43,972 bases of DNA. Origin: a virus. Its lineage: Duplodnaviria; Heunggongvirae; Uroviricota; Caudoviricetes. This document shows, in pieces, positions 5,703-43,025 of the stretch. Position numbers and translations under genes: made by a program. Where the stretch lies: the IMG/VR virus record IMGVR_UViG_2681813201_000019; one strand, written 5' to 3'. Positions within the stretch are counted from its first letter, which is position 1, and each line of letters begins with the position of its first letter. Below the pieces are notes generated by a model. It was not told the origin of the DNA and did no database searches. It saw only the letters and a list, made by a program, of their open reading frames with translations.

Positions 5703-5826
5703 ACAAAAAAACCACCCGGAGGTGGTTTCACGACACTGCTTATTGCTTTGATTTTATTCTTATCTTTCCCATGGTACCCGGAGCGGGACTTGAACCCGCA
5801 CAGCGCGAACGCCGAGGGATTTTAAA
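5703..5826. repeat. att direct repeat, left copy (3' 55 nt of leuZ plus 69 bp of downstream terminator region; not a complete tRNA)
   Basis: 124 bp identical, apart from 1 mismatch, to 42902..43025; identity ends exactly at the tRNA anticodon-loop position. Confidence 0.85.
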
Positions 5827-5932
5827 AACTATCAACCACCATTTATAAATCATAACCTTATGATTTTATTAACTTTGAAAATGGCTCTATACAACGCCAT
5901 TTGAATCTATTGTCACTTTTTATCGCCACTTT

Positions 5933-6934
5933 TTACCCTCTATTGTCAAAAGGGTTCAATTCAACAGCAGCCTCTAAATGACCTGGAGCAAAATGCGCAT
6001 AACGCATAGTCATTTTTATATCGCTATGCCCCAGTATTTTTTGCAACACAAGAATATTTCCGCCCCGCATCATAAAATGACTGGCAAACGTGTGACGTAG
6101 CACATGAGTTAATTGCCCATCAGGAAGCTCGATCTTCGCTCTCTTAATTGCAGCGTCAAAAGCCTCATAACATGGTGAAAATAGCGCTCCTCGTTTTTTG
6201 GGAAGCATAGCCTGCAATTGAGGTGAAATCGGTACAGTGCGGTTCTTCTTTCCTTTAGTTTTAACAAATGTGATTCGACCGGGCAGTACTTGAGATTGCT
6301 TTAATCCTTCTGCTTCACTCCACCGAGCACCAGTCGCAAGCCCAATACGGACAACAACCCCCAAATCTTTATTCCGTGACTCATCACACGCAATCAGAAG
6401 GCGTTCAATCTCATCTACATACAGAAACGCCAGTTCCTTTTCTTCCTCACGAAACTTGCGAATACCAGTCAGGGGGTTTTCACCAGACCACTCCCCAAGG
6501 CGCTTCAGTTCGGCAAAAACAGCATGTAGATATGACTGCTCGCGATTAACGGTTGCTTCACTAAGTTTTTTCTTCCCCTTGGGATTCCATTCTCCTGATA
6601 GCCTTCTTTCCCGATAAGTGGCAAACATATTTTTGTCAAACTGAGAAGCAAATGGATCTCCCAGCCTGGAACAAATCGCCTCAAGTTTGACTTTGCGCTC
6701 TGCACCAGAGGACAAGGTTTTACCGTACATCTCAAACCAACGAGCAATCAACTCAGAAAGACGAGGACCAGAACCATCTTGAAACTCGTCTCCAACTCTA
6801 CTATTCATTAAACGGCGCTCATAAGAGAGCGCCTCACTTTTTGTCGCAAACTGTTTACGAATGCGTTTTCCCGATGCCCCGTAGGGATAACATTCGCAAA
6901 GCCATTTACCTGATGGAATCTTACGAACCGACAT
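5933..6934 (-). CDS. int: Phage integrase (P2 Int family tyrosine recombinase)
   Basis: 333 aa; TGARWSEAEGLK, ITFVKTKGKKNRTVPIS and THVLRHTFASHFMMRGGNILVLQKILGHSDIKMTMRYAHF closely resemble P2 Int; lies about 100 bp from the att repeat. Confidence 0.9.
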   Translation of the reverse strand: MSVRKIPSGKWLCECYPYGASGKRIRKQFATKSEALSYERRLMNSRVGDEFQDGSGPRLSELIARWFEMYGKTLSSGAERKVKLEAICSRLGDPFASQFDKNMFATYRERRLSGEWNPKGKKKLSEATVNREQSYLHAVFAELKRLGEWSGENPLTGIRKFREEEKELAFLYVDEIERLLIACDESRNKDLGVVVRIGLATGARWSEAEGLKQSQVLPGRITFVKTKGKKNRTVPISPQLQAMLPKKRGALFSPCYEAFDAAIKRAKIELPDGQLTHVLRHTFASHFMMRGGNILVLQKILGHSDIKMTMRYAHFAPGHLEAAVELNPFDNRG

Positions 6935-6939
6935 TTTAG

Positions 6940-7287
6940 TTACTTATCACATAAATCAAATGCAGCCTTAGTGACATCCCCTAGGCTCTTTTTTAACCCT
7001 GGGGCGGCATCATTATCTAGCCAAAATGGATTATTGTTATCTAACGGTAACGCACCAAATGTTTTACCTTTTATTCGAGCCAAACCTGTAAGTGCATATA
7101 ACTTATTATCGTCAAAATTCATCACATAAGGATTACCATCAAGACACTGTAATTGAACCTCATCAGTATTAAATGGCCATACCCCATTGAAACTCTCACG
7201 TTCAATAGTTTTAAAAGGCATTGCGACGGCGGAAAAAGAAAACATAGATAAAAAAGTAACTAATAGTTGAACCTTTTTTACTTTCAT
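6940..7287 (-). CDS. Small secreted protein of unknown function (predicted signal peptide)
   Basis: N-terminus MKVKKVQLLVTFLSMFSFSAVA is signal-peptide-like; sits in the int to repressor cargo position. Confidence 0.5.
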   Translation of the reverse strand: MKVKKVQLLVTFLSMFSFSAVAMPFKTIERESFNGVWPFNTDEVQLQCLDGNPYVMNFDDNKLYALTGLARIKGKTFGALPLDNNNPFWLDNDAAPGLKKSLGDVTKAAFDLCDK

Positions 7288-7316
7288 ATCATTACCTCAA
7301 TTTAGCTCAAGTAAGA

Positions 7317-7967
7317 TTACAAATTAAAAAACGCCCTAGAAATGACACCGCCTACCAAAACCCCTACGCAGATAAAGAATATTATTTCTTTTGGATAAAG
7401 TCGGATTAATTCTGAAGCACGAAGTCGGACTTCTGGTAAGGTCGAACTCTCTGTGTGGCTTGATGCCGATTGTTGCTCTAACCACGACAATGCAGACTGT
7501 AACTGAGAACGAGTAAGATCGTTTAAACGTCCTGTACCGAAATTGATATGGCAATACCGCAGAAGTTTTTGTCGAAGTCCACAGTCTTCACTGTTACGTA
7601 GTAATAAACTTACAAGAGCCTTACAGGCATCATGATCTTTACATCGCTCAAGCATTGCATGCAGAAAACTCTCCGCTGTTTTATATTGATTTACTGTCAT
7701 ATCATCAATACCAGCTACACCAATCTCCGCATGTACTTTTTGCCAAATAATAAACGCTTCAGTATTGCTAGCTTCTGCAATAGCAGCAACCAAGCTATTC
7801 AGCTCCTTACGCTGAGCCTTAAGCAAAGGGCGATCGTCATCATCATTATTCGAAGGGATTGCGATATTGACGGTATGAGAACCATCATATCGCTCTATCT
7901 GAATATTCTTTTCGTGAAAATCACGCCCAGCAACGCGATTGTTTGAACCGTTTGAGTTGACGGCCAT
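7317..7967 (-). CDS. Hypothetical membrane-anchored protein (216 aa)
   Basis: C-terminal hydrophobic segment IIFFICVGVLVGGVI; N-terminal motif NNRVAGRDF resembles the C-terminal tail of the adjacent repressor. Confidence 0.45.
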   Translation of the reverse strand: MAVNSNGSNNRVAGRDFHEKNIQIERYDGSHTVNIAIPSNNDDDDRPLLKAQRKELNSLVAAIAEASNTEAFIIWQKVHAEIGVAGIDDMTVNQYKTAESFLHAMLERCKDHDACKALVSLLLRNSEDCGLRQKLLRYCHINFGTGRLNDLTRSQLQSALSWLEQQSASSHTESSTLPEVRLRASELIRLYPKEIIFFICVGVLVGGVISRAFFNL

Positions 7968-7982
7968 GTCACCTCCCTACTA

Positions 7983-8387
7983 TCACCTACCCTTAGTTTC
8001 GTTATAGTCACGACCAGCGATACGGTTATTACCACCAGAAATATTTAACTCACGTCCTGATAGCTGAGTTTCCTTTTCACTGATCGCACCTTTTAAAGCC
8101 CCAATCACCGCGTTTTTCACATCTAACGAAGCTGCTCGAAAGCGAGTAATCAACTCCTGCTCATCATCGTTATAAGTTTCAGGTGAGTGAATTCCCAACA
8201 CAACATACTGAACATCAAGGCCAAAACGAGACAGCGCTGCCAAATACGCAGCATCAGGAAAGCTATCTCCTTTCTCATATCTAAGCTGAGTTAGCTTTTT
8301 GACTCCACCAATGTCGCTCATGGCAACTTGACTAAGTCCCAATCTTTCCCTTTCCTCACGCAACCGCTGACCAATATCATTTTTCAT
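7983..8387 (-). CDS. Immunity repressor, XRE-family HTH (C/CI-like)
   Basis: N-terminal HTH (QRLREERERLGLSQVAMSDIGGVKKLTQLRYEKGDSFP); divergent from the early operon, the usual P2/186 immunity layout. Confidence 0.75.
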   Translation of the reverse strand: MKNDIGQRLREERERLGLSQVAMSDIGGVKKLTQLRYEKGDSFPDAAYLAALSRFGLDVQYVVLGIHSPETYNDDEQELITRFRAASLDVKNAVIGALKGAISEKETQLSGRELNISGGNNRIAGRDYNETKGR

Positions 8388-8462
8388 ACAAAAACCTTGA
8401 CAGGTATCTTTTTTGATACCAAAATGATTTCACGAGCTATTAGATGATCACAATATACCACT
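8388..8462. promoter_or_regulatory. Divergent early promoter/operator region between the repressor and the cox-like gene
   Basis: TTGACA -35-like hexamer followed by the palindrome GGTATC-tttttt-GATACC, plus a second TGATCA palindrome; position matches the Pe/Pc switch region of P2-like phages. Confidence 0.5.
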
Positions 8463-8669
8463 ATGAAACAAGTTCTTCACGATACCAGATCACGCATTCC
8501 GCGTAACACCGCCACAGGTCCAAGACTGGCACTTCGGCTGTCCCTCGAGGAGCGAGCCGTCATTGATGAAATGGCAGCTAAAGAACAACGCTCATCCTCT
8601 AACATGGCGCGCATGATCTTCCTTCGCGGCCTAGAGCTAACCCAGAAAGAACAAAACAAATCTTCCTGA
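8463..8669 (+). CDS. Small early regulatory protein (possible ribbon-helix-helix)
   Basis: 68 aa; first gene of the rightward early operon; RLALRLSLEERAVIDEMAAKE is RHH-like. Confidence 0.4.
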   Translation: MKQVLHDTRSRIPRNTATGPRLALRLSLEERAVIDEMAAKEQRSSSNMARMIFLRGLELTQKEQNKSS

Positions 8670-8685
8670 TCAGGAGGCTAGTGGG

Positions 8686-8889
8686 ATGTCAGGTATAACC
8701 ATCAATATCAATGTGAATGCCCCCTATGTATCCCTGCAGAAATATGCAGAGATAACAGGTATCCCTCTTAATACATGCAAAAAGATGTTGGCTGACGGTC
8801 GAATTATTATCCGCCCCAAACGCGCCAAAATGGAAAAGCCTGAAGTAAACCTTGTGGCGATGTTAAAAGACGCTTTGGCTAACAGCTAA
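8686..8889 (+). CDS. Cox/excisionase-like HTH protein
   Basis: 67 aa; YVSLQKYAEITGIPLNTCKKMLADGRIII resembles the Cox/AlpA HTH; position matches cox/apl. Confidence 0.5.
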   Translation: MSGITININVNAPYVSLQKYAEITGIPLNTCKKMLADGRIIIRPKRAKMEKPEVNLVAMLKDALANS

Positions 8890-8910
8890 AACAATGAACA
8901 GAGCACCATC

Positions 8911-9261
8911 ATGAAAAAAAACGCTAATAATCCATACTCCAAATTTCGTAATGGCGTAGAACGCCATGTACACCACGTCGCTACCAGTGCATCACGTAGT
9001 AACAGTCGCTATAACCTGAACGAAACACACGCAACACCGGATGGCCACGCTGTAAAACAAATCGGCGAGCATACCTGGCTGATTGAGAAAGCTGGAATCG
9101 TGGTCCACAAATGCCCACGCAATCCGTTTACCGGAAACCGCATTTTTGCATTGAGCTGCGGAGACAATCACTTCGGACAGGATTTCACATTATACGAAGC
9201 ACTTCGCACGGTTGATCGTCTGCTTCGCGGGCAAAGTTTTATTAAACAGGCTGATTTATAA
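8911..9261 (+). CDS. Hypothetical early protein
   Basis: 116-aa ORF in the early operon. Confidence 0.4.
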   Translation: MKKNANNPYSKFRNGVERHVHHVATSASRSNSRYNLNETHATPDGHAVKQIGEHTWLIEKAGIVVHKCPRNPFTGNRIFALSCGDNHFGQDFTLYEALRTVDRLLRGQSFIKQADL

Positions 9262-9271
9262 CAGGTGCTTT

Positions 9272-9586
9272 ATGACCAAAGAGCATGCACAAGGTGTATT
9301 TATCCGTTTTATTGATTTTCGCGGTGAACTGTTATTACGCGCATCCGCTATTGATGGAGTGGCTCCGGCGGGTAAAAACGGAGCCGACGAAGCCACTTAC
9401 GTTTATCTGAACGGCACGCGACTGCTTGTGGAACTTCCGTACCAGACCGTACGAGAAATCATTAGTGAAGCTGAAAAGGCACGCCTGGCTAATGGCGTGA
9501 ACCCTATATCGAAATTATTTGTATGGATTCAGAAACTGAAATTCAGAAAGCAGATTAAAGGGCGTTGCGATGGGCAAAGAATATAA
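9272..9586 (+). CDS. Hypothetical early protein (start taken at internal ATG, MTKEHAQGV...)
   Basis: ORF 9212..9586; the internal Met avoids overlap with the preceding gene. Confidence 0.4.
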   Translation: MTKEHAQGVFIRFIDFRGELLLRASAIDGVAPAGKNGADEATYVYLNGTRLLVELPYQTVREIISEAEKARLANGVNPISKLFVWIQKLKFRKQIKGRCDGQRI

Positions 9587-9812
9587 AACTCTCATTAACA
9601 AAGCACTTGAGCGTTTTTATTTTCGCTTAAGTGCATCAGGCGCTCATGCTGAACGAGCAGCCCGTGACTCATTGACCAGGGCAATCCGGAGTCTGTATGA
9701 CGTGGCTTTTTACGCTGATGATCTGGATGCACTTAACGAACTTTCCGAGCTGATCTGTGCCGCAGAATGCGGGGAACATATTGAACCGTATAAGCTGGGG
9801 AATATTGCATGA
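9570..9812 (+). CDS. Hypothetical early protein
   Basis: 80-aa ORF, overlaps its neighbours by a few bases (operon-like). Confidence 0.4.
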   Translation: MGKEYKTLINKALERFYFRLSASGAHAERAARDSLTRAIRSLYDVAFYADDLDALNELSELICAAECGEHIEPYKLGNIA

Positions 9813-9922
9813 GTATATTTATCTCATGGCTTGTTCTGATTATTTCGGTGGCCTGCGCCATTGGGATTATGCGAATTATTCATTCAGTAAAAAAGATTGA
9901 ACGCTTTTTCACTGGTGAATAA
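9809..9922 (+). CDS. Possible small hydrophobic membrane peptide (37 aa)
   Basis: ATGA start/stop overlap with the previous gene; predicted MSIFISWLVLIISVACAIGIMRIIHSVKKIERFFTGE; too short for the ORF track, read from the text. Confidence 0.3.
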   Translation: MSIFISWLVLIISVACAIGIMRIIHSVKKIERFFTGE

Positions 9923-10015
9923 CGATACAAATAAAGCATCAAATTAAATAAGAAAACGTGAAAACCATCCGTATTAACGGAGGTATTCGCACACGCAAAT
10001 AACGGAGATACAAAA

Positions 10016-10426
10016 ATGCACGCAAAAGAAGAAGGTATCATCAGAGCACTGAAAGAAATTTCAAAGACAGAAAACGAAGTAGCGAAAAAAGCCGTGGCAA
10101 ATGCACATATGGACGTCGCAACCCACACACTGATAGTCGCAAGAGTCACGGCAGAAGCAGCCGAAATTATCGCAAAACAGGATGCTGAACTGGCGGTTCT
10201 CAGAACACAACCAGTCACCGGACTGGATTTGTCTAACACCGGACGCCTTATTTACACAATTGGCTCGGAGCTACAGCGATACACCATTATCGCCGGATTA
10301 CAGGATAAATACCTGATCACTCCTCACCCCATAAGGGAATCAGAAATTCTGACAAATCTCCGCCTGATAGAACGCTCTCAAGTTGTATTCATTGATGACG
10401 CGCAATGTGCCGTATTTAACGCATAG
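10016..10426 (+). CDS. Hypothetical early protein
   Basis: 136-aa ORF. Confidence 0.45.
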   Translation: MHAKEEGIIRALKEISKTENEVAKKAVANAHMDVATHTLIVARVTAEAAEIIAKQDAELAVLRTQPVTGLDLSNTGRLIYTIGSELQRYTIIAGLQDKYLITPHPIRESEILTNLRLIERSQVVFIDDAQCAVFNA

Positions 10427-10449
10427 GGTTACTGGACAAAGGGGGCGCA

Positions 10450-10653
10450 ATGGCAATTAAGCATTTTCCCGTCGTTCGCTTTACCTCCAGAGGGCGCGAA
10501 TACGAGGTCGACGAACGCCTGATTACCACTATCGACAAACATCGTTCGGAAAAGGATGCACACCACATCTACCTCACTGACGGCACTTACTTCTGCGCCA
10601 CCAACGTGGCGCGGGTGAATCTTATCCGACAGGTACAGGAGCCACGCAGATGA
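10450..10653 (+). CDS. Hypothetical early protein
   Basis: 67-aa ORF. Confidence 0.4.
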   Translation: MAIKHFPVVRFTSRGREYEVDERLITTIDKHRSEKDAHHIYLTDGTYFCATNVARVNLIRQVQEPRR

Positions 10654-10916
10654 CCATTCTGGACTACATCGCTACTCATCCGGGGTGTAGCGGCGGAGAG
10701 ATCGCCGCAGCACTGAATACCCCAACCACAGCCATTAATGCTGAGTTACGCCGACTTTGGCGCGGCGGCTTAGTCATCAGAACAAACCGCAGCACAGGTG
10801 GTCGCGCTCGCAAAACAGGAGGCCAGGCTTCTTACCACGTAAACCCGATGCTGTTCGGGTGTAGTAATCCACTTACTCACATGTTTAACCAGCTACTGAA
10901 GGAAGCCAGAGCATGA
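10650..10916 (+). CDS. Small putative DNA-binding protein (winged-helix-like)
   Basis: 88 aa; ILDYIATHPGCSGGEIAAALNTPTTAINAELRRLWRGGLV resembles a winged HTH. Confidence 0.4.
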   Translation: MTILDYIATHPGCSGGEIAAALNTPTTAINAELRRLWRGGLVIRTNRSTGGRARKTGGQASYHVNPMLFGCSNPLTHMFNQLLKEARA

Positions 10917-11212
10917 GCACCATCAACCACCAGAAGCTACGCGAACTGGCATTTGCCCTGCAACGAATGGCAACGCCTCAAAAATTACTGGCATTTCGCG
11001 CAATGCTCTCGCCGTCTGCTGTGCTGGCACTGCTGGATCAGCTGGAGCACGCCAGAACCACTGCTCCAGCCATTCGCCTCACGCTCCATCATGAAATCGC
11101 TGATTTCTGCGCAACGCTGGGGGCACCTGGCGAACCGGAAACGCCGGAAGCAATGCAGCAAGAGCTGCTGCAACGCATCGATAACGTTTTTGATTTTTTT
11201 CTGAACCAGTAA
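10913..11212 (+). CDS. Hypothetical early protein
   Basis: 99-aa ORF, translationally coupled to the previous gene. Confidence 0.4.
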   Translation: MSTINHQKLRELAFALQRMATPQKLLAFRAMLSPSAVLALLDQLEHARTTAPAIRLTLHHEIADFCATLGAPGEPETPEAMQQELLQRIDNVFDFFLNQ

Positions 11213-11534
11213 GAAACCAGAACATGCACACACAAAAAAACCGCTTGCCATGCCTCAATCGGTCAGGTTACATTTCCGCTGCACCTCATAAAACGGGCGC
11301 CGGGATTCTCAACCCGATACAGAGCAAAGCGCATAACCGCGCAAGCGGTTTTTTTGTGCGTACTGTATTGCCACGTCTTTTTCGCGTCAGAATTATGGCG
11401 GGGCGTACGGGGCCGACTTCGGTCGGGCCGGATTCTTTGCTCTCCGGTGTTGAGAACCCTGTACGTCTCGCCACCCCGAGATTCTCAACTCTGGATGGTG
11501 AGTTATTTCTATCACCGAGCAAAGAGGCCACACC

Positions 11535-11765
11535 ATGGCAGACCGCAAACAGCACCGCGCTATCGCGGAGCGTCGTCACATCCAGACTGAAATCAACCGC
11601 AGACTTTCCCGCGCATCACGCGTCGCGCAAATCATGCACATCAATATGCTGCATGAGCGCAGCCACGCACTATCAAACATTTATTCCGCCTCTGTTTTCA
11701 GCTATCTGGCGGATGATCTGCACGAGCTTCAACAGCTCATCCAGCAGCAAAACAAACTCCATTAA
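11535..11765 (+). CDS. Hypothetical small basic protein
   Basis: 76-aa ORF with an AGAGG Shine-Dalgarno upstream; the overlapping 205-aa frame (11224..11841) looks non-coding. Confidence 0.35.
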   Translation: MADRKQHRAIAERRHIQTEINRRLSRASRVAQIMHINMLHERSHALSNIYSASVFSYLADDLHELQQLIQQQNKLH

Positions 11766-11837
11766 TTCCTGTTCCGGGCCTTTCCTGCACCTTGCGGCGG
11801 GAGGCCTTCGCACATCTGTAACAAGAGGATTGCCGCA

Positions 11838-12203
11838 ATGATTCTCGCCAACGACTTTCTTGAATACCTGCTCAACACAGAGCGTGATCTTGCCGCTCGC
11901 GTGCGTGATCGTTATGACATGTACCTGAAATCCCTGCCTGTACCGCAGCTCGCTGACGGAAAGATTGTTATTGATGGTCGCTACATGATTGACAGCCACG
12001 AGGGAAATTACAGGCTTTCCCGCATTGAAGGTGGCACCCCGTCCGTTATTGGCATTTACCAGCGCCCATCCTCTGCAATCGTCGATGTGATTGCCGACAG
12101 CATCCGCATCACACATCGCCATGCCGACACAGAAGACACCGTGCTGGAAATTCAGCGGCTGGCTACAGTCTGCCGCGACACCCTGAATGGCATGACGAAG
12201 TAA
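11838..12203 (+). CDS. Hypothetical protein upstream of the replication gene
   Basis: 121-aa ORF. Confidence 0.45.
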   Translation: MILANDFLEYLLNTERDLAARVRDRYDMYLKSLPVPQLADGKIVIDGRYMIDSHEGNYRLSRIEGGTPSVIGIYQRPSSAIVDVIADSIRITHRHADTEDTVLEIQRLATVCRDTLNGMTK

Positions 12204-12209
12204 ATCACT

Positions 12210-15032
12210 ATGACGGCAGAGTACATCAGGGACTGGCAACAACCGCGCCACGCAGTGGGGCGTGAAGGAACGGGGATCCCCGCTCCTGAATCCGCGCTTT
12301 CCTCCTGGCTGGATGCCTACCGGGTAGAGAACGAGCGCCGCCAGGAAATGGCTGATGCGGCGTTCTCCGCCACGCCGCTGGGCAACCTGATTAATAAAAG
12401 CCTGGACGCACAGGAAAAACAGGACAAAACCATCACACTGGCAGGAGACGCCAGAAAACAGGCACGCGGCGCAGTGGATGAAGCCATGACCTCGCTGCGC
12501 CTGCTGCCGTCCTATCTGCGCGATCCGCTTATTCGCCACCTCTCCTTCCTGCGCAAAAAACAGGAAGCCGATCGCCGGAAAGGCAAAAAGAGCTGGCAGG
12601 CGGAACGCTATGCACGCGGAACCCTGCGCAAAATATTCGAACGTCTGGACCGCACCGATCACCGCTGGCTGACACCGGGTTATCGCTCCCTTGCCGGACG
12701 CGAACGCCTGGACGATTTGCTTTACCTGCCGCAGCTCAACAAACACCAGATACAGACGCTGGCCACCATGACGGCGGCGATGTTCAGCAGCACCTTCGAA
12801 AAACTCTGCGATGGCTTTGGCGCGACTGATGGCGAACTGACCATGGATGTAACGCTGAAGGCGTATCAGATGCTGGCCCGCATGGCGTTACACCTGCACG
12901 CCATGCCTCCACATTATGACGCACTGACAACAGACAAAGACCGGAGGAACGAACCGGACACAGAGCTGCTGCCGGGCGCAATCCTTCGCCTGACCTGTGC
13001 GGAATGGTGGAAACGCAAACTGTGGCTGTTACGTTGCGAGTGGAGAGAAGAACAACTCCGCGCCGCCTGTCTGGTTTCCAGAAAAACATCGCCCTATCTG
13101 AGCCAGGACGCGTTAAGCGAGTTTCGCGCACAGCGCGAGAAAACACGCGATTTCCTGAAAAGTTTCATGCTGGAAAACGAAGACGGGTTCACGATTGATC
13201 TCGAGACAGTGTATTACGCGGGAGTAAGTAACCCGGTTCACCGTAAGGCAGAAATGATGGCCACCATGAAGGGACTGGAACTTCTGGCCGAAGCCCGTGG
13301 CGACAGAGCGGTGTTTCTGACTGTCACCTGCCCGTCAAAATACCACGCAACAACGGAGAACGGTCATCCGAACCCCAAATGGAACGGGGCCACCATGCGC
13401 GACTCCAGCGATTACCTGGTTAACACGTTTTTTGCGGCGGTCCGCAAAAAACTGAACCGCGACGGCCTGCGCTGGTATGGCATCCGCACGGTGGAGCCTC
13501 ACCATGACGGCACCGTGCACTGGCATATGATGGTCTTTGCTCATCCGGAAGAAATCGACAGCATCGTGGCCATCACCCGCGATATTGCCATTCAGGAAGA
13601 CCGCCACGAGCTGGGCAATGATATTACTCCGCGCTTTAAAGTGGAGTATGTCGACGGCTCAAAAGGCACACCAACCAGCTATATCGCGACCTACATCGGG
13701 AAAAACCTGGACAGCCGCGCCGTGGATGGCATCGACCCGAAAACGGGCAAACCACGCGTTGACCACGAAACCGGAAAATCAATGGCCGAGAGCGTGGAGC
13801 GCGCCATCGGTTGGGCACGCCTTCACCGGGTCCGCCAGTTCCAGTTCTTTGGCATCCCCTCCCGTCAGGTGTGGCGTGAACTCCGCCGCCTTGCCAGCCA
13901 GATGGCACGCAACCCGGAAGGCCCGCAACGGCTGAAGGATGACGCAATGGATGCGGTACTCGCTGCCGCTGATGCCGGATGTTTTGCCACCTACATAGAG
14001 AAACAGGGCGGCGTACTTGTTCCACGCAAAGACTACCTGATTCGCACCGCCTACGACCTCGCCGATGAGCTGAACGATTACGGCGAACAGAGTGTACAGA
14101 TTTACGGGATCTGGTCACCACTCATCGGGGAATCCTCCCGTGTGTGCACGCACCCGGATAACTGGAAGCTGGTAAGACGTAAACCGGAACAGGAAGGCAG
14201 CGCCCACGAAAATGGTTTTGACCTTCAGGGCGGCCCTGCCGCCCCTTGGACTCGTGGCAATAACTGTCCCCGTGTACAGGAAACGGACAACAACGGGACA
14301 GAACAGCCGGAAGAACGGCCAGCACCGTGGCCGCAGCTCCCTGACGGCGTTGAAGTGAACGAATGGATGCGCTCACTGAAACGGCACGAACGCCGGGCGC
14401 TGATGCGTTCGCTTCGTGACAAACAGGCAAAAAACAGCAGTGATGAAATGCAGAGCTGGACACAGAGCCGCAAACAGCAGCGGCCTTTGCCTGATAACCA
14501 CGAATTACTCGCTAAAGAATGGCGGGAGTCTGCTGAATCTCTCGGCCTGCATATCGGTGAACAACAGATGCAGCACCTGTTACGGGGCGGCAGTCTGTAC
14601 GTTGACGGCAGCATCATTGCACCGCAGGGGTTTGAAATTGTACGCAAACCGGATACCCGCCCGGACAGCCGAATCACGCAGCTCTGGCAGCGCCTGAGCC
14701 GTAATCACGGCGTAAGCAGCACGGAGATCCGCCATAACCCGGTCGCCAGCTATCTGGCGCAACTGGGGGCATCAGACCCTGAAGCCGCCGCACGCCTGGC
14801 ATCCACACTTCAGCAGGACCAGAACACCATGAAAACACCCGTTACCGTGCTTTCTGACATGCTGCGCGCCATCCGCGACACAGAGCACGCACAGAGAATC
14901 AGTGAAACCACTGAACGCGCCCGCCGCAAAGCAGACCTGCTGCGGGGTGGCCTGACCATTGGAAACAAAAAACAGACAGAAACGGGATTCACAAATCCCG
15001 TAAATGAGCAAAAAACGCGCCGCGATATATGA
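12210..15032 (+). CDS. A: Replication initiation endonuclease, gpA-like (rolling-circle HUH initiator)
   Basis: 940 aa; HUH motif HWHMMVF and tyrosine pair in TSYIATYIGKN typical of the P2 A / phiX174 A superfamily; expected position after the early genes. Confidence 0.85.
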   Translation: MTAEYIRDWQQPRHAVGREGTGIPAPESALSSWLDAYRVENERRQEMADAAFSATPLGNLINKSLDAQEKQDKTITLAGDARKQARGAVDEAMTSLRLLPSYLRDPLIRHLSFLRKKQEADRRKGKKSWQAERYARGTLRKIFERLDRTDHRWLTPGYRSLAGRERLDDLLYLPQLNKHQIQTLATMTAAMFSSTFEKLCDGFGATDGELTMDVTLKAYQMLARMALHLHAMPPHYDALTTDKDRRNEPDTELLPGAILRLTCAEWWKRKLWLLRCEWREEQLRAACLVSRKTSPYLSQDALSEFRAQREKTRDFLKSFMLENEDGFTIDLETVYYAGVSNPVHRKAEMMATMKGLELLAEARGDRAVFLTVTCPSKYHATTENGHPNPKWNGATMRDSSDYLVNTFFAAVRKKLNRDGLRWYGIRTVEPHHDGTVHWHMMVFAHPEEIDSIVAITRDIAIQEDRHELGNDITPRFKVEYVDGSKGTPTSYIATYIGKNLDSRAVDGIDPKTGKPRVDHETGKSMAESVERAIGWARLHRVRQFQFFGIPSRQVWRELRRLASQMARNPEGPQRLKDDAMDAVLAAADAGCFATYIEKQGGVLVPRKDYLIRTAYDLADELNDYGEQSVQIYGIWSPLIGESSRVCTHPDNWKLVRRKPEQEGSAHENGFDLQGGPAAPWTRGNNCPRVQETDNNGTEQPEERPAPWPQLPDGVEVNEWMRSLKRHERRALMRSLRDKQAKNSSDEMQSWTQSRKQQRPLPDNHELLAKEWRESAESLGLHIGEQQMQHLLRGGSLYVDGSIIAPQGFEIVRKPDTRPDSRITQLWQRLSRNHGVSSTEIRHNPVASYLAQLGASDPEAAARLASTLQQDQNTMKTPVTVLSDMLRAIRDTEHAQRISETTERARRKADLLRGGLTIGNKKQTETGFTNPVNEQKTRRDI

Positions 15033-15108
15033 AGCGCGCATAAAACAGGCAAAAACGGGATTTCAGAATCCCGTAAACGATTAATTAATCAACATAAGGA
15101 AAAGCGAC
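14975..15108. promoter_or_regulatory. Two 20-bp palindromes ACGGGATT-N4-AATCCCGT about 70 bp apart, immediately upstream of the parM-like gene (candidate parC/operator)
   Basis: Perfect 8-bp inverted arms with 4-bp spacers at about 14981..15000 and 15053..15072; no T-run, so not typical intrinsic terminators. Confidence 0.4.
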
Positions 15109-16068
15109 ATGAAAATTTGTATCGATGACGGCTCCACCAACATCAAGCTGGCATGGACTGAGAACGGCGAACGCCGCAACGCCATCAGCCCGAACAGCTT
15201 CAAGTCGGAATGGTCTGCGCCGTTCGGTGGCACGCAGCCCGCGAACTACATGCTTGATGGCGTGCGCTATGGTTTTGATCCGGTCAGCGATCGCTTTGTC
15301 CAGACGACCGACACGCAATACCAGTACAGCGATGTGAATGTCATTGCCATTCATCACGCGCTGGTCAAATCAGGCATCACACCACAGGAAGTGGATGTGG
15401 TTGTCACCCTGCCACTGAGCGAATATTTCGACACAAACGCACAGCCGGACATGGCCAACATCAACCGCAAAAAAGCAAACGTCATGCGCCCGGTGGCGTA
15501 CCAGAACGGAAAAGCATTCACTATCCGTAACGTACGGGTTATGCCTGAATCCATTCCGGCTGGTTTTAAAGCACTGGCTGACATGAGTCCGTTTGAATCC
15601 CTGCTGATTGTGGATTTAGGCGGAACCACGCTGGATGTGGCAAAGGTTCAGGGACAACTGGCAGGTATCAGCCAGGTGTTTTGCGATCCACACGTAGGCG
15701 TTTCCCTGATGGCCGATGCCGTACTGTCGGTGATGGCCACTAACGGTATGCGTACCAGTCACCACATCGCCAATACCATTATCGAACATCGCCATGATGA
15801 AGCCTGGCTGCGCCAGCACATCCACAATGACGCGCATTACGACAGCCTGATAGCGGTTATTCGTGAAAAGGAAGAAACACTGAAACAACGCGTGATCCGC
15901 GCGCTGGCGGGTTTTTCGGGTTACGGGCGGGTGATGGTTGTCGGTGGCGGGGCGGAGATTGTGGCACCCGCTATCCGCGAAGCCTGCGGAGTTAATGCGA
16001 CTTTCATCGCGGACGGGGTGCCACAGTTTGCTCTGGTTAATGGGCTGTACGCAATGGACAAGGAGTAA
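15109..16068 (+). CDS. parM: ParM/StbA-like actin-family segregation ATPase
   Basis: 319 aa; N-terminus MKICIDDGSTNIKLAW against R1 ParM MLVFIDDGSTNIKLQW, and similarity continues along the length (YSDVNVIAIHHAL, RRKANVMRPV, LLIVDLGGTTLDV, MVVGGGAE, LVNGLY). Confidence 0.85.
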   Translation: MKICIDDGSTNIKLAWTENGERRNAISPNSFKSEWSAPFGGTQPANYMLDGVRYGFDPVSDRFVQTTDTQYQYSDVNVIAIHHALVKSGITPQEVDVVVTLPLSEYFDTNAQPDMANINRKKANVMRPVAYQNGKAFTIRNVRVMPESIPAGFKALADMSPFESLLIVDLGGTTLDVAKVQGQLAGISQVFCDPHVGVSLMADAVLSVMATNGMRTSHHIANTIIEHRHDEAWLRQHIHNDAHYDSLIAVIREKEETLKQRVIRALAGFSGYGRVMVVGGGAEIVAPAIREACGVNATFIADGVPQFALVNGLYAMDKE

Positions 16069-16072
16069 ACCA

Positions 16073-16384
16073 ATGACGACACCAACCAGACGGATAAGTT
16101 TCTATCTGAAGCCCGCCGCCGTCAAGAACGAAGGCAAAGCATGCGCCTGGCTGGACAGCCTTACACCAGAAGCCCGCAAAAGTGGTCAACGTGTGGCTTT
16201 TCTGGCCGGACTGGCACTTATGAAAATTAATCCGGCAGAGGCTTACCGACTGGCTGCATGGGCTGACGATGAAGCGTTATCCCTGACACAAACCAGGACA
16301 GAACGCCCCGTGTCACAGCCAGCACCAACCGCACAGATAACCAGTCAGATGGCCGGAAATATCCGGGCGTTATTTCCCGAATAA
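16073..16384 (+). CDS. parR: ParR-like centromere-binding protein
   Basis: 103 aa from the internal ATG with AAGGAG Shine-Dalgarno; RRISFYLKP...ACAWLDSL...AFLAGLAL...NIRALFPE parallels R1 ParR (RRTIAFKLNP...VCDTLDSI...AALTAGLAL...ILRSLFPKE). Confidence 0.7.
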   Translation: MTTPTRRISFYLKPAAVKNEGKACAWLDSLTPEARKSGQRVAFLAGLALMKINPAEAYRLAAWADDEALSLTQTRTERPVSQPAPTAQITSQMAGNIRALFPE

Positions 16385-16447
16385 CACAACATCAGGGCGC
16401 ATCCGCCCTGATGACTTTAACCCGGGAACATAAACAAGGGGGACACA

Positions 16448-17091: not shown

Positions 17092-17093
17092 GA

Positions 17094-17585: not shown

Positions 17586-17586
17586 T

Positions 17587-17850: not shown

Positions 17851-17860
17851 GGACTAACAC

Positions 17861-18121: not shown

Positions 18122-18130
18122 AAATGAGCC

Positions 18131-18160
18131 AAAACGCCCTCTTCCAGGGCGTTTATTTTA
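18131..18160 (+). terminator. Rho-independent terminator closing the cargo operon
   Basis: Hairpin aaacgccct-cttcc-agggcgttt followed by a T-rich run. Confidence 0.55.
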
Positions 18161-18161
18161 A

Positions 18162-22401: not shown

Positions 22402-22424
22402 TAAGACAAAGGAGCAAATTTTTT

Positions 22425-29821: not shown

Positions 29822-29823
29822 GC

Positions 29824-31974: not shown

Positions 31975-31977
31975 ATT

Positions 31978-32505: not shown

Positions 32506-32510
32506 AAATT

Positions 32511-32530
32511 AAGGCCCGATATCGGGCCTT
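32511..32530. terminator. Palindromic hairpin between the convergent G and G' genes (possible bidirectional terminator)
   Basis: aaggcccgatatcgggcctt. Confidence 0.4.
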
Positions 32531-32533
32531 CTC

Positions 32534-33067
32534 TCATTCTGGTTGTTCGGGAAACGTTACTGGCAGGCTGGAGGTGTCTGTAGATTCGACTTTCTGCGCA
32601 AAGAGCATCCACTCGGTTAATTTCTGCTTATTCTCGTCGGAAATGATGCCCAGCCGTAGCTGTGAGTCCCATAGCTGGGTTTTATCCCTGACAAGTTGCA
32701 ACAGGCTTTGCTTTTCATTTTCCGCTTGTTGTCTCTGCTCTTCCTCGGTATAAGTTCGCTTTATCACTACGCCATCTTTGAACATCCATTTCCCCGAAAT
32801 ATCAGCCCGGCGATTTGCTGTAATATCAGGTAATTCAACGACGCTTGCGCCTTCCGGATTAATTGCTGAAACATCCTTTTCAATACAAATAATAACGCCG
32901 TTATGGTCATAGACCATTTTCAAAGTGTCTGGCTGGAAATTCTTTTGTTCCTCATACCAGTTTTTTCCATCATCTGAATAAAGCCATTTGATGTTAAATT
33001 GCTTTGTTAGCTGGTATTGCTCTTTTGTTTTAGGGTTGCCAGCAGTAATGTTTTTTAAGTGCATCAT
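32534..33067 (-). CDS. Alternative tail fibre assembly chaperone (G'), inverted orientation
   Basis: 177 aa; [24 protein letters not shown]... is a paralogue of gpG on the opposite strand inside the invertible segment. Confidence 0.8.
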   Translation of the reverse strand: MMHLKNITAGNPKTKEQYQLTKQFNIKWLYSDDGKNWYEEQKNFQPDTLKMVYDHNGVIICIEKDVSAINPEGASVVELPDITANRRADISGKWMFKDGVVIKRTYTEEEQRQQAENEKQSLLQLVRDKTQLWDSQLRLGIISDENKQKLTEWMLFAQKVESTDTSSLPVTFPEQPE

Positions 33068-33069
33068 CG

Positions 33070-33780
33070 TTAAATACTCCCCGCGTTATACCACGTCCCA
33101 TTAATGCAATACTGAATTGGCCTTGCCTGTGTTGTATCAATTAATTCATCACGGTTTCCGTTAACTGAACCCGTAACGACATAACCTGACCTGTCAGACC
33201 AGCCGGGACCATTCCATGTCTGAACAGATGACAGACCGCCAAGGCGAATACCTGTAATAAACCTTGAGTTACATTCTGCCTGCGTATATGCACCAACATC
33301 TCCCGCTGAAGGTTTTCGTGTCGTGGTATAGAAATCTGACCAACCTAATTCAAACCCATAACCATCACGAGCCGACCTGTAGGAAATGCCACCATTTTTA
33401 TAATTCACACGGAATTGTACGGCAGGACAGCTACCAGCATTTATATTAAAGTGAAGAATTAATACAGATGCACCACCAATCAGGGCGTTATATGCACCAC
33501 TATCCCAATTCCATCCAACGGATGTATCACCATTAACAGTATTACCTGTTTGTCGGAGTGCAAATGCATTGACATTTTTGGCACTAATTGAAATATCGCT
33601 AGAACCATCAAAACCAACTCCAGCAATTTTTCGTGCTGTTTTCAGCTTTGTTGCAGTAGCGGCATTGCCGGACAGTTCCCCAGAAAGGCCACCGCTGAAT
33701 GTTTGTCGATTGGTCCAGGTATTCGCTGTACTGAGTAACGGTATTTTCTCCCCGCTTGTGCCGAGTTCTCGTAAACCGAG
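33070..33780 (-). CDS. Alternative tail-fibre C-terminal cassette with no start codon (would fuse to the gpH constant region after inversion)
   Basis: Reading the minus strand from the gix-like site gives an open frame of about 232 codons (LGLRELGTSGEKIPLL...INGTWYNAGSI) in phase with the gpH crossover codons; ends with the same INGTWYN motif as the current gpH C-terminus. Confidence 0.6.
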   Translation of the reverse strand, partial: LGLRELGTSGEKIPLLSTANTWTNRQTFSGGLSGELSGNAATATKLKTARKIAGVGFDGSSDISISAKNVNAFALRQTGNTVNGDTSVGWNWDSGAYNALIGGASVLILHFNINAGSCPAVQFRVNYKNGGISYRSARDGYGFELGWSDFYTTTRKPSAGDVGAYTQAECNSRFITGIRLGGLSSVQTWNGPGWSDRSGYVVTGSVNGNRDELIDTTQARPIQYCINGTWYNAGSI

Positions 33781-33791
33781 GTTTTAAATAA
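33766..33791. other. gix/hix-like recombination site (right boundary of the invertible segment)
   Basis: TTCTCGTAAACCGAGGTTTTAAATAA, inverted relative to 31088..31113 and just upstream of the invertase gene. Confidence 0.6.
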
Positions 33792-33827
33792 TGGCCGTTT
33801 CTGGCCTGCATGGCATGATTTGCGCTT

Positions 33828-34445
33828 TTGGACGGGAGATTCAGTGTGCTGATTGGCTATGTAAGGGTATCAACAAATGACCAGAATACAGACCTGCAAC
33901 GAAACGCTCTTGTTTGTGCAGGATGTGAACAAATATTTGAAGATAAATTAAGCGGGACAAAGACAGACCGACCGGGATTAAAACGCGCTTTAAAGCGCCT
34001 TCAAAAAGGTGACACGCTGGTTGTCTGGAAACTGGATCGCCTCGGGCGAAGCATGAAACATCTGATTTCTCTCGTCGGGGAACTACGGGAGCGAGGGATT
34101 AATTTTCGCAGTCTGACCGACAGCATAGACACATCTTCTCCAATGGGGCGTTTTTTCTTCCACGTGATGGGTGCCCTGGCTGAAATGGAACGTGAATTAA
34201 TTGTTGAACGTACACTGGCCGGGCTGGCGGCAGCGCGCGCAAGGGGGCGCACAGGCGGACGTCGACCGAAGCTGACAAAAGAACAGCATGAGCAAATAGC
34301 AAGGCTAATCAAAAACGGGCACGACAGAAAACAACTGGCAATAATTTACGGCATTGGCACATCGACGATTTATCGTTATCACCCTGTAGGCGATATACAG
34401 ACTGAAGAAACAACCGGGCAGACTCAGGAAAATGAAAACCGCTAA
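33828..34445 (+). CDS. Serine DNA invertase (Gin/Hin/Cin/Pin family)
   Basis: LIGYVRVSTNDQNTDLQRNAL...GDTLVVWKLDRLGRS... and a C-terminal HTH; the true start may be the internal GTG (VLIGY...) 18 nt downstream. Confidence 0.9.
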   Translation: MDGRFSVLIGYVRVSTNDQNTDLQRNALVCAGCEQIFEDKLSGTKTDRPGLKRALKRLQKGDTLVVWKLDRLGRSMKHLISLVGELRERGINFRSLTDSIDTSSPMGRFFFHVMGALAEMERELIVERTLAGLAAARARGRTGGRRPKLTKEQHEQIARLIKNGHDRKQLAIIYGIGTSTIYRYHPVGDIQTEETTGQTQENENR

Positions 34446-40216: not shown

Positions 40217-41326
40217 ATGACCGACACCACCATGCAATTGCTCAGCCAGGGCACAGACCCCGTAAAAATGCCGGATTTTGATATTCTCGCGGAGGGTAAA
40301 ACGCTGTCCGGCGTGGCAGAGCGCCTGATGAGCCTGTCGCTGACCGACAACCGGGGATTTGAGGCAGACCAGCTCACCATCACGCTGGATGATGCGGATG
40401 GTCAGTTGCAGCTACCGCCACGGGGCGCGCGCCTGACGGTTCTCATTGGCTGGAAAGGCGAACCGCTGACAGAAAAAGGGTCTTACATTGTTGATGAAAT
40501 CGCACACGAAGGACCGCCGGACAGGCTGACTGTTTCAGCCAGAAGCGCAGATTTCCGGGATGAATTTAACGTTAAACGTGAGGTGTCCTGGCATGATGTG
40601 ACCGTTGAGCGTGTGGTATCCGCCATCGCTCATCGGTACGGTCTGAAACCGCAAATCAGCGAAATGCTGATGGATATCGAAATCGACCACGCCGACCAGA
40701 CCGAAGAAAGTGACATGTCCTTCCTTACGCGCATGGCGGAAATGCTGGGCGCAATCACTACGGTAAAAAGCGGTAATCTGTTATTCATCATGCCCGGTGG
40801 TGGCGTGAACGCACAGGGCCAGCCGTTGCCATCGTTCGCCATCACGCGCAGCAGCGGCGATCGCCATCAGTTCCGCATTGCTGACCGCGAGGCGTATACG
40901 GGGGTACGCGCCTACTGGCTTGATCTTAATTACGGGAAAAAGAAAAAAGTCAGCGTGAAACGCCGCAAACCGCCAAAACCGAAAAAAGAGAAAAGCAGCA
41001 GCCGTGAAGGTGATTATATGGAAGGCGCGGAAGGCAATGTGTTTGTGTTACGCAAGACTTATCAGAACGAGCAGGCAGCAAGACGCGCAGCGGCGGCAAA
41101 GTGGCAACAACTACAACGCGGAGCCGCATCATTCTCCATCACGCTGGCACGTGGACGAGCAGAACTCTACCCCGAAATGCATGGCACGGTAACAGGATTT
41201 AAAAGCGAGATTGATAATCAGGACTGGATTATTGCAAAAGCCGAGCACACCATTGATAACAGCGGCTTTACCACGCAGCTTGAGCTTGAGGCAAAAATCC
41301 CGGAATGGATAGCGGAAACAGAGTGA
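40217..41326 (+). CDS. D: Tail protein D (gpD); start at internal ATG (MTDTTMQLL...)
   Basis: About 370 aa, P2 gpD-like, upstream of ogr; the ORF-track start at 40085 lies inside the divergent promoter region. Confidence 0.8.
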   Translation: MTDTTMQLLSQGTDPVKMPDFDILAEGKTLSGVAERLMSLSLTDNRGFEADQLTITLDDADGQLQLPPRGARLTVLIGWKGEPLTEKGSYIVDEIAHEGPPDRLTVSARSADFRDEFNVKREVSWHDVTVERVVSAIAHRYGLKPQISEMLMDIEIDHADQTEESDMSFLTRMAEMLGAITTVKSGNLLFIMPGGGVNAQGQPLPSFAITRSSGDRHQFRIADREAYTGVRAYWLDLNYGKKKKVSVKRRKPPKPKKEKSSSREGDYMEGAEGNVFVLRKTYQNEQAARRAAAAKWQQLQRGAASFSITLARGRAELYPEMHGTVTGFKSEIDNQDWIIAKAEHTIDNSGFTTQLELEAKIPEWIAETE

Positions 41327-41368
41327 GCAACTTAGAATAGCGGCAGCACCACGTTAAAGGAGGTCGCT

Positions 41369-41629
41369 ATGTTCCGTTGTCCGCTTTGTGGCGCATCTGC
41401 CCGTATCCGCACCAGTCGTCCGGAAAATGATTCAAACACCGTGCGGCAAAAGTATTACCAGTGTAACAACCTGGAATGCGGCGTATGCTTCTCAACACTG
41501 GAAGCTTTCCATAAATTCACATCGAAACACGCCTCCGGCGTTCACTCATCAGAAGGTATCCCGTGGCATGAGCTGCCAGCTTCACACAGGGGAAACAATC
41601 AGATGAGTTTGCCTTTACCTCAGAATTAA
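41369..41629 (+). CDS. ogr: Ogr/Delta-family zinc-finger late transcription activator
   Basis: MFRCPLCGASARIRTSR...YYQCNNLECGVCF parallels P2 Ogr (MFHCPLCQHAAHARTSR...YHQCQNVNCSATF). Confidence 0.85.
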   Translation: MFRCPLCGASARIRTSRPENDSNTVRQKYYQCNNLECGVCFSTLEAFHKFTSKHASGVHSSEGIPWHELPASHRGNNQMSLPLPQN

Positions 41630-41818
41630 CAGGCAGAATTGCCGGAGTAACAAAAAAGCGATAGATTACGTGCGGGTGCCTTTCGGCTGATGGTCGGAGG
41701 GAATACCCGAAGGCCGGATGTGGAAAGGCCCCGGAAAACATTTCTGTTTAACCGAGGCCCTAACCCGTCAACCTAGCAAGTGATAGGTTAGCGCCTCTCC
41801 AACAAAGGAGCAAGCGCT

Positions 41819-41959
41819 ATGTCGCAAAAATCGCTTACGGCCATCACGTTCTGCGTGACGGTAATCCTCATCATCTGGATGCTGCACGGTTCGCTGTGTG
41901 AAATACGGATGAGCTTCTGGGGAGCGGAGTTTGCGGCGTTCTTACAGTGTAAGCAGTAA
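41819..41959 (+). CDS. Hok/Gef-family type I toxin (46 aa)
   Basis: MSQKSLTAITFCVTVILIIWMLHGSLCEIRMSFWGAEFAAFLQCKQ has one transmembrane helix and the SLCEIR...AAF signature of Hok; a long structured leader lies upstream and a terminator downstream. Confidence 0.7.
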   Translation: MSQKSLTAITFCVTVILIIWMLHGSLCEIRMSFWGAEFAAFLQCKQ

Positions 41960-42046
41960 GGAAACCGCGACGGGGAGGCAACTCCCCGTCAATCGGTTGC
42001 CAGGGTAAGGCCGATAAGGCACCCTATCTCATAGGCATGAATAACA

Positions 42047-42080
42047 ACCCCGCAGCGTAAAAACTGCGGGGTTTCTTTTT
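42047..42080 (+). terminator. Rho-independent terminator of the hok-like transcript
   Basis: ccccgcagcgtaaaaactgcgggg followed by tttcttttt. Confidence 0.5.
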
Positions 42081-42148
42081 GGAACTCTCACTAGCTAGTG
42101 AGCCGTTAACTGCACATAATGCTCGCACAACAAATCAGTTAAAAGAGA

Positions 42149-42544
42149 TTACTCAGCATTCTCCTGCTTCCATTGCCGGATCATTTCATCGGTAACATCA
42201 CTTTCATAACATACCACGTCATACCCTCCAGTACGGCTATATGCACTGCGTCCACCACATCTACTACCATTCCTTGCATGATTATACGGACACGCACAAT
42301 TGCCTGGATAAGATTCAATGGATTCTTTAATTATTTCTTTCTTGATCTGAGCATCTGACTTTCCTGTTGCTGCATACCCACTAAAAGATACCAAACAAAG
42401 GCAGATTGCCATTAATAAACCACATCGCATACCGATACACTCTATTACTAACCAATCATAGCCCACATCATAAAATCGAGATGAGGAGTACAACACCTTT
42501 AACAAGAAGGTGCCATCACGATAATATGCCGTGCAATTCATCAA
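42149..42544 (-). CDS. Hypothetical Cys-rich secreted protein (start possibly at an internal Met)
   Basis: Signal-peptide-like MRCGLLMAICLCLVSFSGYAA and a Cys-rich region PGNCACPYNHARNGSRCGG; prophage cargo between ogr and attR. Confidence 0.4.
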   Translation of the reverse strand: MMNCTAYYRDGTFLLKVLYSSSRFYDVGYDWLVIECIGMRCGLLMAICLCLVSFSGYAATGKSDAQIKKEIIKESIESYPGNCACPYNHARNGSRCGGRSAYSRTGGYDVVCYESDVTDEMIRQWKQENAE

Positions 42545-42901
42545 AAAAAAGATCTATATCAAAGAGATAGAGTTATTATCAGTGCTGCAGACATCAGCAT
42601 TCGAGGCAGCAGAAAGACAGTAAATCTAACGAATTTGTCTTTTTCTCAAGATGTTGTCAGATTAAAAAAGATAGAGTAGCGCAGACACCTTTTGGTGGAT
42701 GGTAGGAGGAAAAATGAAGTTGAGTGGGAAGATCCCAGAAAAAACTTTGGTTTAACCAAGGCCCTAGTTCAATATGCGAAATGCAGATGAGTTGCAGGAG
42801 AGTTTTGCTTCACCCTTAGAGTTTAAACAGACGTGTACTATCATTATTTCTGCATATCGCCACACCATCGCCACTTTACCGCCATTTAACAAAATACAAA
42901 T

Positions 42902-43025
42902 ACAAAAAAACCACCCGAAGGTGGTTTCACGACACTGCTTATTGCTTTGATTTTATTCTTATCTTTCCCATGGTACCCGGAGCGGGACTTGAACCCGCAC
43001 AGCGCGAACGCCGAGGGATTTTAAA
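42902..43025. repeat. att direct repeat, right copy (overlaps the functional leuZ 3' half and its terminator)
   Basis: Identical to 5703..5826 except for one base in the terminator loop. Confidence 0.85.

Follow-up and report, generated by a model that had tools for sequence, protein, structure and literature searches.

A pipolin and a P2-like prophage in tandem at leuZ: evidence for serial use of one tRNA attachment site in Escherichia coli

How two mobile elements came to lie side by side at a single tRNA gene, and whether either of them can still leave it, are the questions raised by the IMG/VR virus record IMGVR_UViG_2681813201_000019. This 43,972-nucleotide stretch of DNA (hereafter the window) holds a P2-like prophage next to the tRNA-Leu gene leuZ and, to the left of the prophage, a gene for piPolB, the B-family DNA polymerase of a pipolin. 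A preliminary description, made from the letters of the window, had proposed that the two elements stand in tandem at leuZ with a 124-bp attachment (att) repeat between them. A repeat search of the window bore this out, finding a direct repeat in two copies, at 5703-5826 and 42902-43025, which are identical at 123 of 124 positions (99%) and enclose the prophage. The sole mismatch, G in the copy at 5703-5826 and A in the copy at 42902-43025, lies in the loop of a terminator. The repeat is far beyond chance, because the next-longest dispersed repeats in the window reach only 36 nt at 64-78% identity. Over its first 6 kb the window is 100% identical to the chromosomes of two strains, E. coli O145:NM FWSEC0002 (NZ_CP031919.1) and 99-3311.

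The geometry of the repeat is set by the tRNA gene. ARAGORN placed an intact 87-nt tRNA-Leu(taa) gene, the tRNA-Leu(UAA) gene leuZ, on the minus strand at 42971-43057; it is the last gene of a tRNA-Gly/tRNA-Cys/tRNA-Leu cluster with the synteny pgsA, tRNA Gly-Cys-Leu, yecA. The right copy of the repeat consists, as first described, of the 3' 55 nt of leuZ (42971-43025) and 69 bp downstream (42902-42970). Within these 69 bp, at 42928-42907, lies a terminator-like hairpin, GAAACCACC-TTCG-GGTGGTTTT, with a T-run after it. This copy, att3 (minus strand, A variant, phage-type left flank), completes the functional leuZ gene and its terminator. The left copy, att2 (5703-5826, minus strand), is a displaced block of the leuZ 3' 55 nt and terminator; it bounds the pipolin on the right and the prophage on the left, and carries the G variant of the O145 pipolin.

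A third repeat upstream of the window, which the preliminary description had proposed to look for, and whose absence would have spoken against it, is present. In the sequence reaching 20 kb upstream of the window (L001, in which each coordinate is the window coordinate plus 20000), att1 was found directly after yecA at L001:6759-6882, or window -13241 to -13118, 18.9 kb left of att2, so that att1 and att2 flank the pipolin. The whole locus reads yecA, att1, pipolin (18.9 kb), att2, P2-like prophage (37.2 kb), att3/leuZ, cysT, glyW and pgsA. Alignment showed the three copies to be in register. They have a common right boundary, GGGATTTTAAA, in the anticodon loop of tRNA-Leu(taa), and the left boundary of their identity block lies just beyond the terminator T-run; the alignment of att1 with att2 runs 8 bp further left (132-137 nt aligned at 97%). 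The block therefore extends from the anticodon loop through the tRNA 3' end while leuZ is kept intact at 87 nt, as in integration at the anticodon-loop sublocation.

We consider it highly probable, at about 0.9, that the arrangement arose by two successive site-specific integrations, each by a tyrosine recombinase, into the anticodon-loop region of leuZ. The att site of each element would carry a copy of the part that it displaces: 55 nt of the tRNA, starting in the anticodon loop and reaching its 3' end, and a further 69 bp of spacer and terminator. Integration would therefore leave leuZ in working order, and the copy that it displaces would come to lie at the distal end of the element. The pipolin would have entered first, giving yecA-att1-pipolin-att-leuZ, and the P2-like temperate phage second, using the intact leuZ copy. 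Entry of the phage would then have pushed the pipolin-derived block inward, as att2, and given leuZ the phage's own block, as att3. Within the block, the crossover would probably fall at the end that lies in the anticodon loop.

The occupancy of leuZ in other strains was determined by running synthetic junction queries against 5426 complete E. coli genomes, a junction being counted where one place covered at least 80% of the query. The empty site, yecA-att-leuZ, was present in 3790 genomes, and its best matches were 99.9% identical over their full length; unoccupied single-att sites thus exist in relatives. The right end of the phage was joined through att to leuZ in 615 genomes, and yecA through att to the phage int gene in 491. 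Pipolin right end-att-leuZ was found in 501, and the tandem junction, pipolin-att-phage int, in 30, among them H10407, 99-3165, 2014EL-1346-6 and FWSEC0002. The leuZ site is a hotspot, occupied in about 30% of the complete genomes. Each element also occurs alone, and in every pairing it is the prophage that adjoins the intact tRNA gene: the reverse order, phage right end-att-pipolin left end, occurred in 0 of the 5426. This 30-to-0 asymmetry is suggestive rather than strong, and weaker than it looks, because the tandem genomes come from few lineages.

Which element donated which copy could be read from the G/A difference. The O145 strain RM9872 carries an identical pipolin and no prophage, and the synthetic pipolin-att-leuZ junction matches it base for base; in that strain G stands in the terminator loop of the att copy next to leuZ, and A in that of the copy beside yecA. 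The G copy of FWSEC0002, which keeps its pipolin flank, is att2, between the two elements, and the copy at leuZ is marked by A and a phage flank. A single precise reciprocal exchange, on the tRNA side of block position 17, thus separates the two states, and the phage carries its own full copy of the block. It donated att3, and att2 would be the former leuZ copy of the pipolin. This donor tracing is valid within the O145 lineage only, because the G variant is specific to that lineage; as a general marker of pipolins the variant was rejected, PapRG-06-5 and MS6198 having A in both copies. The proposed serial use of one tRNA att site is thus supported by the three copies in register, by empty, single and tandem sites in other genomes, by O145 sisters that have the identical pipolin, no prophage and a base-perfect junction, and by the base change that tracks the donor of each copy.

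The preliminary description had also called the repeat unusually long and had noted that it extends beyond the tRNA into its terminator. The extension is as described, the hairpin lying within the block, but the length is not special to the two elements studied here. Essentially the same block, of 121-137 bp, is present in the pipolin, in the P2-like phage and in the unrelated lambdoid phage mEp390 (NC_019721), in which an annotated 121-bp 'putative prophage insertion site' (attP) adjoins int and covers the same part of leuZ. The mEp390 attP is 88.5% identical to the block and has the same right boundary in the anticodon loop. In the alignment, the differences include a compensatory T-stem pair (C/G to T/A) and, in the terminator, an altered loop on a conserved stem, and the longest perfect stretch is at the anticodon-loop end. 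Since three unrelated element types carry the same unit, block length belongs to the integration site and is not odd to this locus. This sharing suggests that selection has kept the means of rebuilding both the 3' half of the tRNA and the terminator of the operon, while recombination takes place at the anticodon end; the repeat would be long because each incoming element must replace both of these displaced parts.

We then turned to the left element, which on its genes and borders appears to be a decayed pipolin: membership holds, autonomy does not. Between the att-like direct repeats att1 and att2 it contains DUF262 and a type I restriction-modification system whose M subunit is broken, together with IS3, a recombinase, piPolB, the fragment of an integrase and a hypothetical gene; in pipolin-only relatives the right repeat overlaps leuZ. 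The piPolB open reading frame (ORF) at 1765-4320 (plus strand, 851 aa) is named 'DNA-directed DNA polymerase' or 'DNA polymerase type-B family protein' by RefSeq, and its translation has the exonuclease and polymerase motifs FDTEY, KEIGNSLYGKL (KxxxNSLYG), TTDG and KTRG. It gave a weak PHROG DNA polymerase match and no match in Pfam, NCBIfam or PDB sequence searches. Its identity as piPolB rests on the motifs, the RefSeq name and a published strain list, in which FWSEC0002 appears as a pipolin carrier (PMC7385651).

All three recombination genes of the pipolin are present and damaged. The 3' end of an IS3-family insertion sequence occupies window 1-101 on the plus strand (RefSeq annotation; IS3 coding sequence at L001:18888-20101), and in blastn homology to the uninterrupted pipolin of PapRG-06-5 restarts only at window 142. 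The adjoining tyrosine recombinase of XerC/IntP2 type (67-879, plus strand; Pfam Phage_integrase, E=2.3e-22; weak XerC/XerD matches in NCBIfam) is N-terminally truncated, its ORF having 270 aa against 376 aa in PapRG-06-5, with about 130 N-terminal residues lost to the IS3 insertion. Next to it lies the remnant of an excisionase-like helix-turn-helix (HTH) gene (902-1087, plus strand). Blastn of the comparison sequence L009 against L001 showed that a 143-bp deletion (L009 16761-16903, missing here) took the start codon of this gene, whose coding sequence in L009 is 16889-17089. The IntSXT/P4-type integrase is a pseudogene (4160-4738, minus strand) reduced to an N-terminal fragment with the arm DNA-binding domain (Pfam Arm-DNA-bind_3, E=7.7e-15), flagged 'incomplete, missing C-terminus' in RefSeq; the same truncation is found in pipolin-only strains, which have no prophage. 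With all three genes damaged, the pipolin is unlikely to move on its own enzymes. A conserved hypothetical gene (4789-5529, plus strand; from annotation) closes its att-proximal end.

Some further features of pipolins at this site were observed. Between 4160 and 4320 the 3' end of the piPolB ORF overlaps the remaining IntSXT-type fragment on the opposite strand, and the last ~50 annotated polymerase residues may be read-through into integrase-derived DNA made by deletion. The pipolin's own 'YecA family protein' gene is, at its 3' end, 75% identical over 81 nt to chromosomal yecA (L001:5964-6044 and 15631-15711), a likeness that is probably just the shared C-terminal metal-binding motif. In MS6198 (L006, NZ_CP015834.1), positions 5764-20498 are a pipolin-derived island that keeps both att copies and the same cargo as here (DUF262, type I restriction-modification and a cold-shock-domain protein), and has neither piPolB nor any recombinase. 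The 501 pipolin-type ends at leuZ were consequently rejected as a count of pipolins, MS6198 being a remnant without piPolB; many of these genomes may carry such remnants, missed by polymerase-based screens.

The preliminary description had suggested that the piece between the repeats could excise alone or together with its neighbour. Excision alone is plausible for the prophage only. Its P2-type integrase (Int) gene (5933-6934, minus strand, 333 aa; Pfam Int_N and Phage_integrase, PHROG integrase E=1.4e-76) is intact, as are those for a Cox-like excisionase/repressor (8686-8889, plus strand; phrog_575, E=1.2e-27), a C-like immunity repressor with an HTH domain (7983-8387, minus strand; Pfam HTH_31, PHROG transcriptional regulator/repressor families) and a gpA-type replication endonuclease (12210-15032, plus strand; RefSeq, phrog_91 E=5e-276). 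Excision by Int and Cox on att2 and att3 would be the expected reaction. Joint site-specific excision through att1 and att3, or help from the phage to the pipolin, is not expected, because the pipolin recombinase and phage Int are only 23% identical and, in alignments, the pipolin-side flanks (the att1 flank and the left of att2) are unrelated to the phage arms, so that the arms of two unrelated systems would be needed. The two elements could be expected to leave together only by homologous recombination. Such recombination between the 124-137-bp repeats could cause low-frequency loss of either element or of both, and the pipolin would now be immobile unless helped or deleted by this RecA-dependent route.

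Whether excised forms exist was examined by searching for circular junctions. An IMG/VR contig of 34.9 kb, UViG_2548876853_000002, is 96.5-99% identical in blastn to the prophage of the window and has the order early genes, int, a single 124-bp block (A variant) and then the ogr, D and tail genes, which is the attP arrangement. It appears to end in the tail-fibre region, as judged from blastn coordinates and size, its last 14.4 kb having been read. A long exact phage-attP pattern matched no viral contig; a shorter pattern matched one viral contig and no metagenome contig. Circular-pipolin junction patterns had no match in viral or metagenome contigs. The search for circular junctions and empty sites, which the preliminary description had put forward as a check, thus yielded one attP-form contig for the phage and 3790 empty sites, and no circle for the pipolin. 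Comparison of the reconstructed phage attP with the phage collection retrieved no virion-derived genome of this phage, and the collection matches (520873 and vB_EcoM-... records) were rejected as attP evidence, since they are predicted prophage records that still include yecA.

These records merit a separate remark. ON470596.1 (L004, 1-19865) and three similar vB_EcoM-... records begin with host yecA and the 124-bp att block, and then carry a different myovirus-type structural module, which combines lambda-like head genes with a contractile tail. They are prophage extractions with some host DNA, and they reveal a further type of phage at leuZ.

Several observations weigh against two successive integrations with a prophage that can still excise. 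The G/A tracing fits loss of the prophage from a tandem ancestor as well as it fits gain. The 30 tandem genomes represent few independent lineages. One small prophage gene is frameshifted according to the annotation. The attP-form contig comes from an isolate draft assembly, and a wrong join at the 124-bp repeat, or a dilysogen with two prophages in tandem, could in principle give the same order; for FWSEC0002 the support for excision is drawn from assembled sequence. The locus might instead be a fixed composite island, both elements being dead remnants and the repeats scars that no longer recombine. The damage to all three pipolin recombination genes agrees with this, as does the published finding of no detectable pipolin excision and of tandem pipolins that follow host phylogeny (PMC7385651). 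The O145:H28 strain RM13514 (L007, NZ_CP006027.1; 20751-22709) agrees with it as well: there an IS3-adjacent deletion took the pipolin recombinase, piPolB, att2 and the prophage region from int to replication, fused pipolin cargo to the prophage portal gene, and left two att copies. However, the prophage of the window has intact int, cox, repressor and gpA genes and a full structural module, sister strains differ by its precise presence or absence, and a contig in the attP form exists. We therefore regard a fixed island as improbable.

Two other explanations fare worse. The phage might have come first and the pipolin later, into the displaced partial copy next to yecA. Nothing speaks specifically for this order, although either order yields three direct repeats, and entry on the yecA side would also give yecA-att-pipolin-att-prophage. 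It would, however, need a site lacking the 5' half of the anticodon stem; prophage-free O145 strains with the same pipolin have the pipolin-specific G copy at leuZ; and the pipolin recombinases are defective, the same truncated pipolin being widespread without the prophage. We hold this order to be extremely unlikely. Equally hard to credit is a functional coupling, in which phage Int/Cox or phage particles would mobilise the integrase-dead pipolin in satellite fashion, or the defence cargo of the pipolin would select which phage settles. The frequent prophage co-integration in the truncated pipolin clade (PMC11551731), a relation left open in that study, and the near-identity of the three att copies would be in its favour. 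Against it stand the 23% identity of the two recombinases, the unrelated flanks of att1 and the left of att2, and a composite of 56 kb that exceeds a P2-size genome (~35-37 kb). The phage end lies directly at yecA, with no pipolin, in 491 genomes as compared with 30 in tandem, and no circular junction of the pipolin was found in the viral or metagenome contigs. That the pairing is functional and not accidental in a looser sense, with Int/Cox or RecA acting on the shared block to move the pipolin or the composite occasionally as a hitch-hiker, or with the defence cargo filtering leuZ lysogens, is in our estimate very unlikely.

The genes of the prophage follow the complete P2 order: the int-C-cox switch, gpA, portal and terminase genes divergent from those for scaffold, capsid and small terminase, lysis and tail genes, gpD and ogr. 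With this order and an att site next to int, in RefSeq annotation and PHROG matches, it is a P2-like prophage, apparently intact, and its int-att region shares 98% identity with that of a record assigned to Xuanwuvirus (Peduoviridae). The P2-type head module (18613-24323) has portal and large terminase genes on the minus strand and genes for scaffold, P2-family major capsid and small terminase on the plus strand (RefSeq). Late control gene D and the ogr/Delta zinc-finger activator (40217-41629, plus strand; RefSeq, converted coordinates) form its right end. Inspection of the arms revealed a recurrent motif, ATCGCCAC, once in the int-side arm (5827-5932) at 5922-5929 and twice in the ogr-side arm (plus strand, 42856-42874; starts 42856 and 42867). 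The window has 7 matches to it against 2.2 expected, a number reached in 2 of 100 shuffles, and the three matches within 100 bp of the prophage att borders are all on one strand. As candidate arm-type Int sites these matches are only suggestive.

Other features of the prophage concern its accessory functions. The tail-fibre segment (29824-34445) comprises a fibre gene (29824-31974), two assembly genes (31978-32505 and 32534-33067), a partial fibre gene (~33070-33780) and an adjoining DNA invertase gene (33828-34445; phrog_125, E=1e-96). The two assembly genes are swapped in position and orientation between FWSEC0002 and O145:H28 RM13514 (L007:33920-38541), and the segment is thus flipped between the strains; together with the invertase this suggests a working host-range switch. 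Within the fibre gene, 30351-30746 holds three tandem 132-nt units (100%, 84% and 66% identity) that encode a 44-residue fibre-shaft repeat. After gpA, where P2 has accessory genes, 15109-16384 holds genes for an actin-like segregation protein of ParM type (phrog_691, E=5e-90) and for a small partition/stability protein; this partition module of plasmid type could hint at an episomal phase of the prophage. Finally, a Hok/Gef-family toxin gene (41819-41959, plus strand) lies between ogr and the att3 arm, in a region with a low-GC stretch (41% GC, 42001-43000), and is probably an accessory gene (moron) or a stabilisation module.

The locus is a clean textbook case of a tRNA gene becoming an integration hotspot common to unrelated elements. 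For genome annotation, its three att copies mean two elements and not one 56-kb island, and the inner element can be a non-autonomous relic.

How does the arrangement compare with known systems? Williams is said in 2002 to have classified integrations into tRNA genes by sublocation, with an anticodon-loop class in which the 3' part of the gene is duplicated. Integration of that type and the present case are alike in a block from the anticodon loop to the 3' end, in a tRNA gene that DNA of the element makes whole again, and in a gene for a tyrosine recombinase beside att. Here, however, the block does not stop at the tRNA but takes in a further 69 bp with the operon terminator, and essentially one block is found at this gene in three unrelated types of element. 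Long att identity is also known from HP1 and other phages. The attP of the lambdoid mEp390 shares the leuZ 3' half and terminator block beside int, with its right boundary in the anticodon loop, but is 88.5% identical, with a compensatory T-stem change and another terminator loop, and belongs to another phage family with another integrase.

Tandem accretion at one att site is known, for example, from arrays of an integrative and conjugative element with a cis-mobilizable element (ICE and CIME) in Streptococcus thermophilus, and from tandem islands at tRNA genes. As a rule, the defective member of such an array has the same att arms as its neighbour, whose integrase can mobilise it. The leuZ locus resembles them in its three direct att copies, which delimit two adjacent elements and of which the inner one is shared, but differs in that the arms are unrelated and the recombinases 23% identical, so that neither shared arms nor a shared integrase specificity links the two elements.

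The closest parallel is the published set of E. coli pipolins with three att repeats (PMC7385651, PMC11551731): locus, three-repeat layout, prophage class and strain are the same, and nothing essential differs. Flament-Simon et al. (2020, Sci Rep, PMC7385651) attributed the three att repeats of some genomes to an integration site that pipolin and prophage have in common, as first noted in enterotoxigenic E. coli (ETEC) H10407, named FWSEC0002 among eight strains in which a similar myovirus prophage adjoins the pipolin, and connected the tandem state with pipolins that are passed on vertically and are probably inactivated. Mateo-Caceres et al. (2024, NAR, PMC11551731) described a pipolin clade with truncated IntSXT plus IntP2 and frequent prophage co-integration, and a tRNA-Leu hotspot between pgsA and yecA. 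A possible link between pipolin truncation and prophage co-integration was already flagged in that literature. The tandem arrangement is thus already known, and published for FWSEC0002 itself. To this the present analysis adds, incrementally, the junction counts, the tracing of the donors, the attP-form contig, the IntSXT truncation in strains without the prophage, and the deletion-fusion in RM13514.

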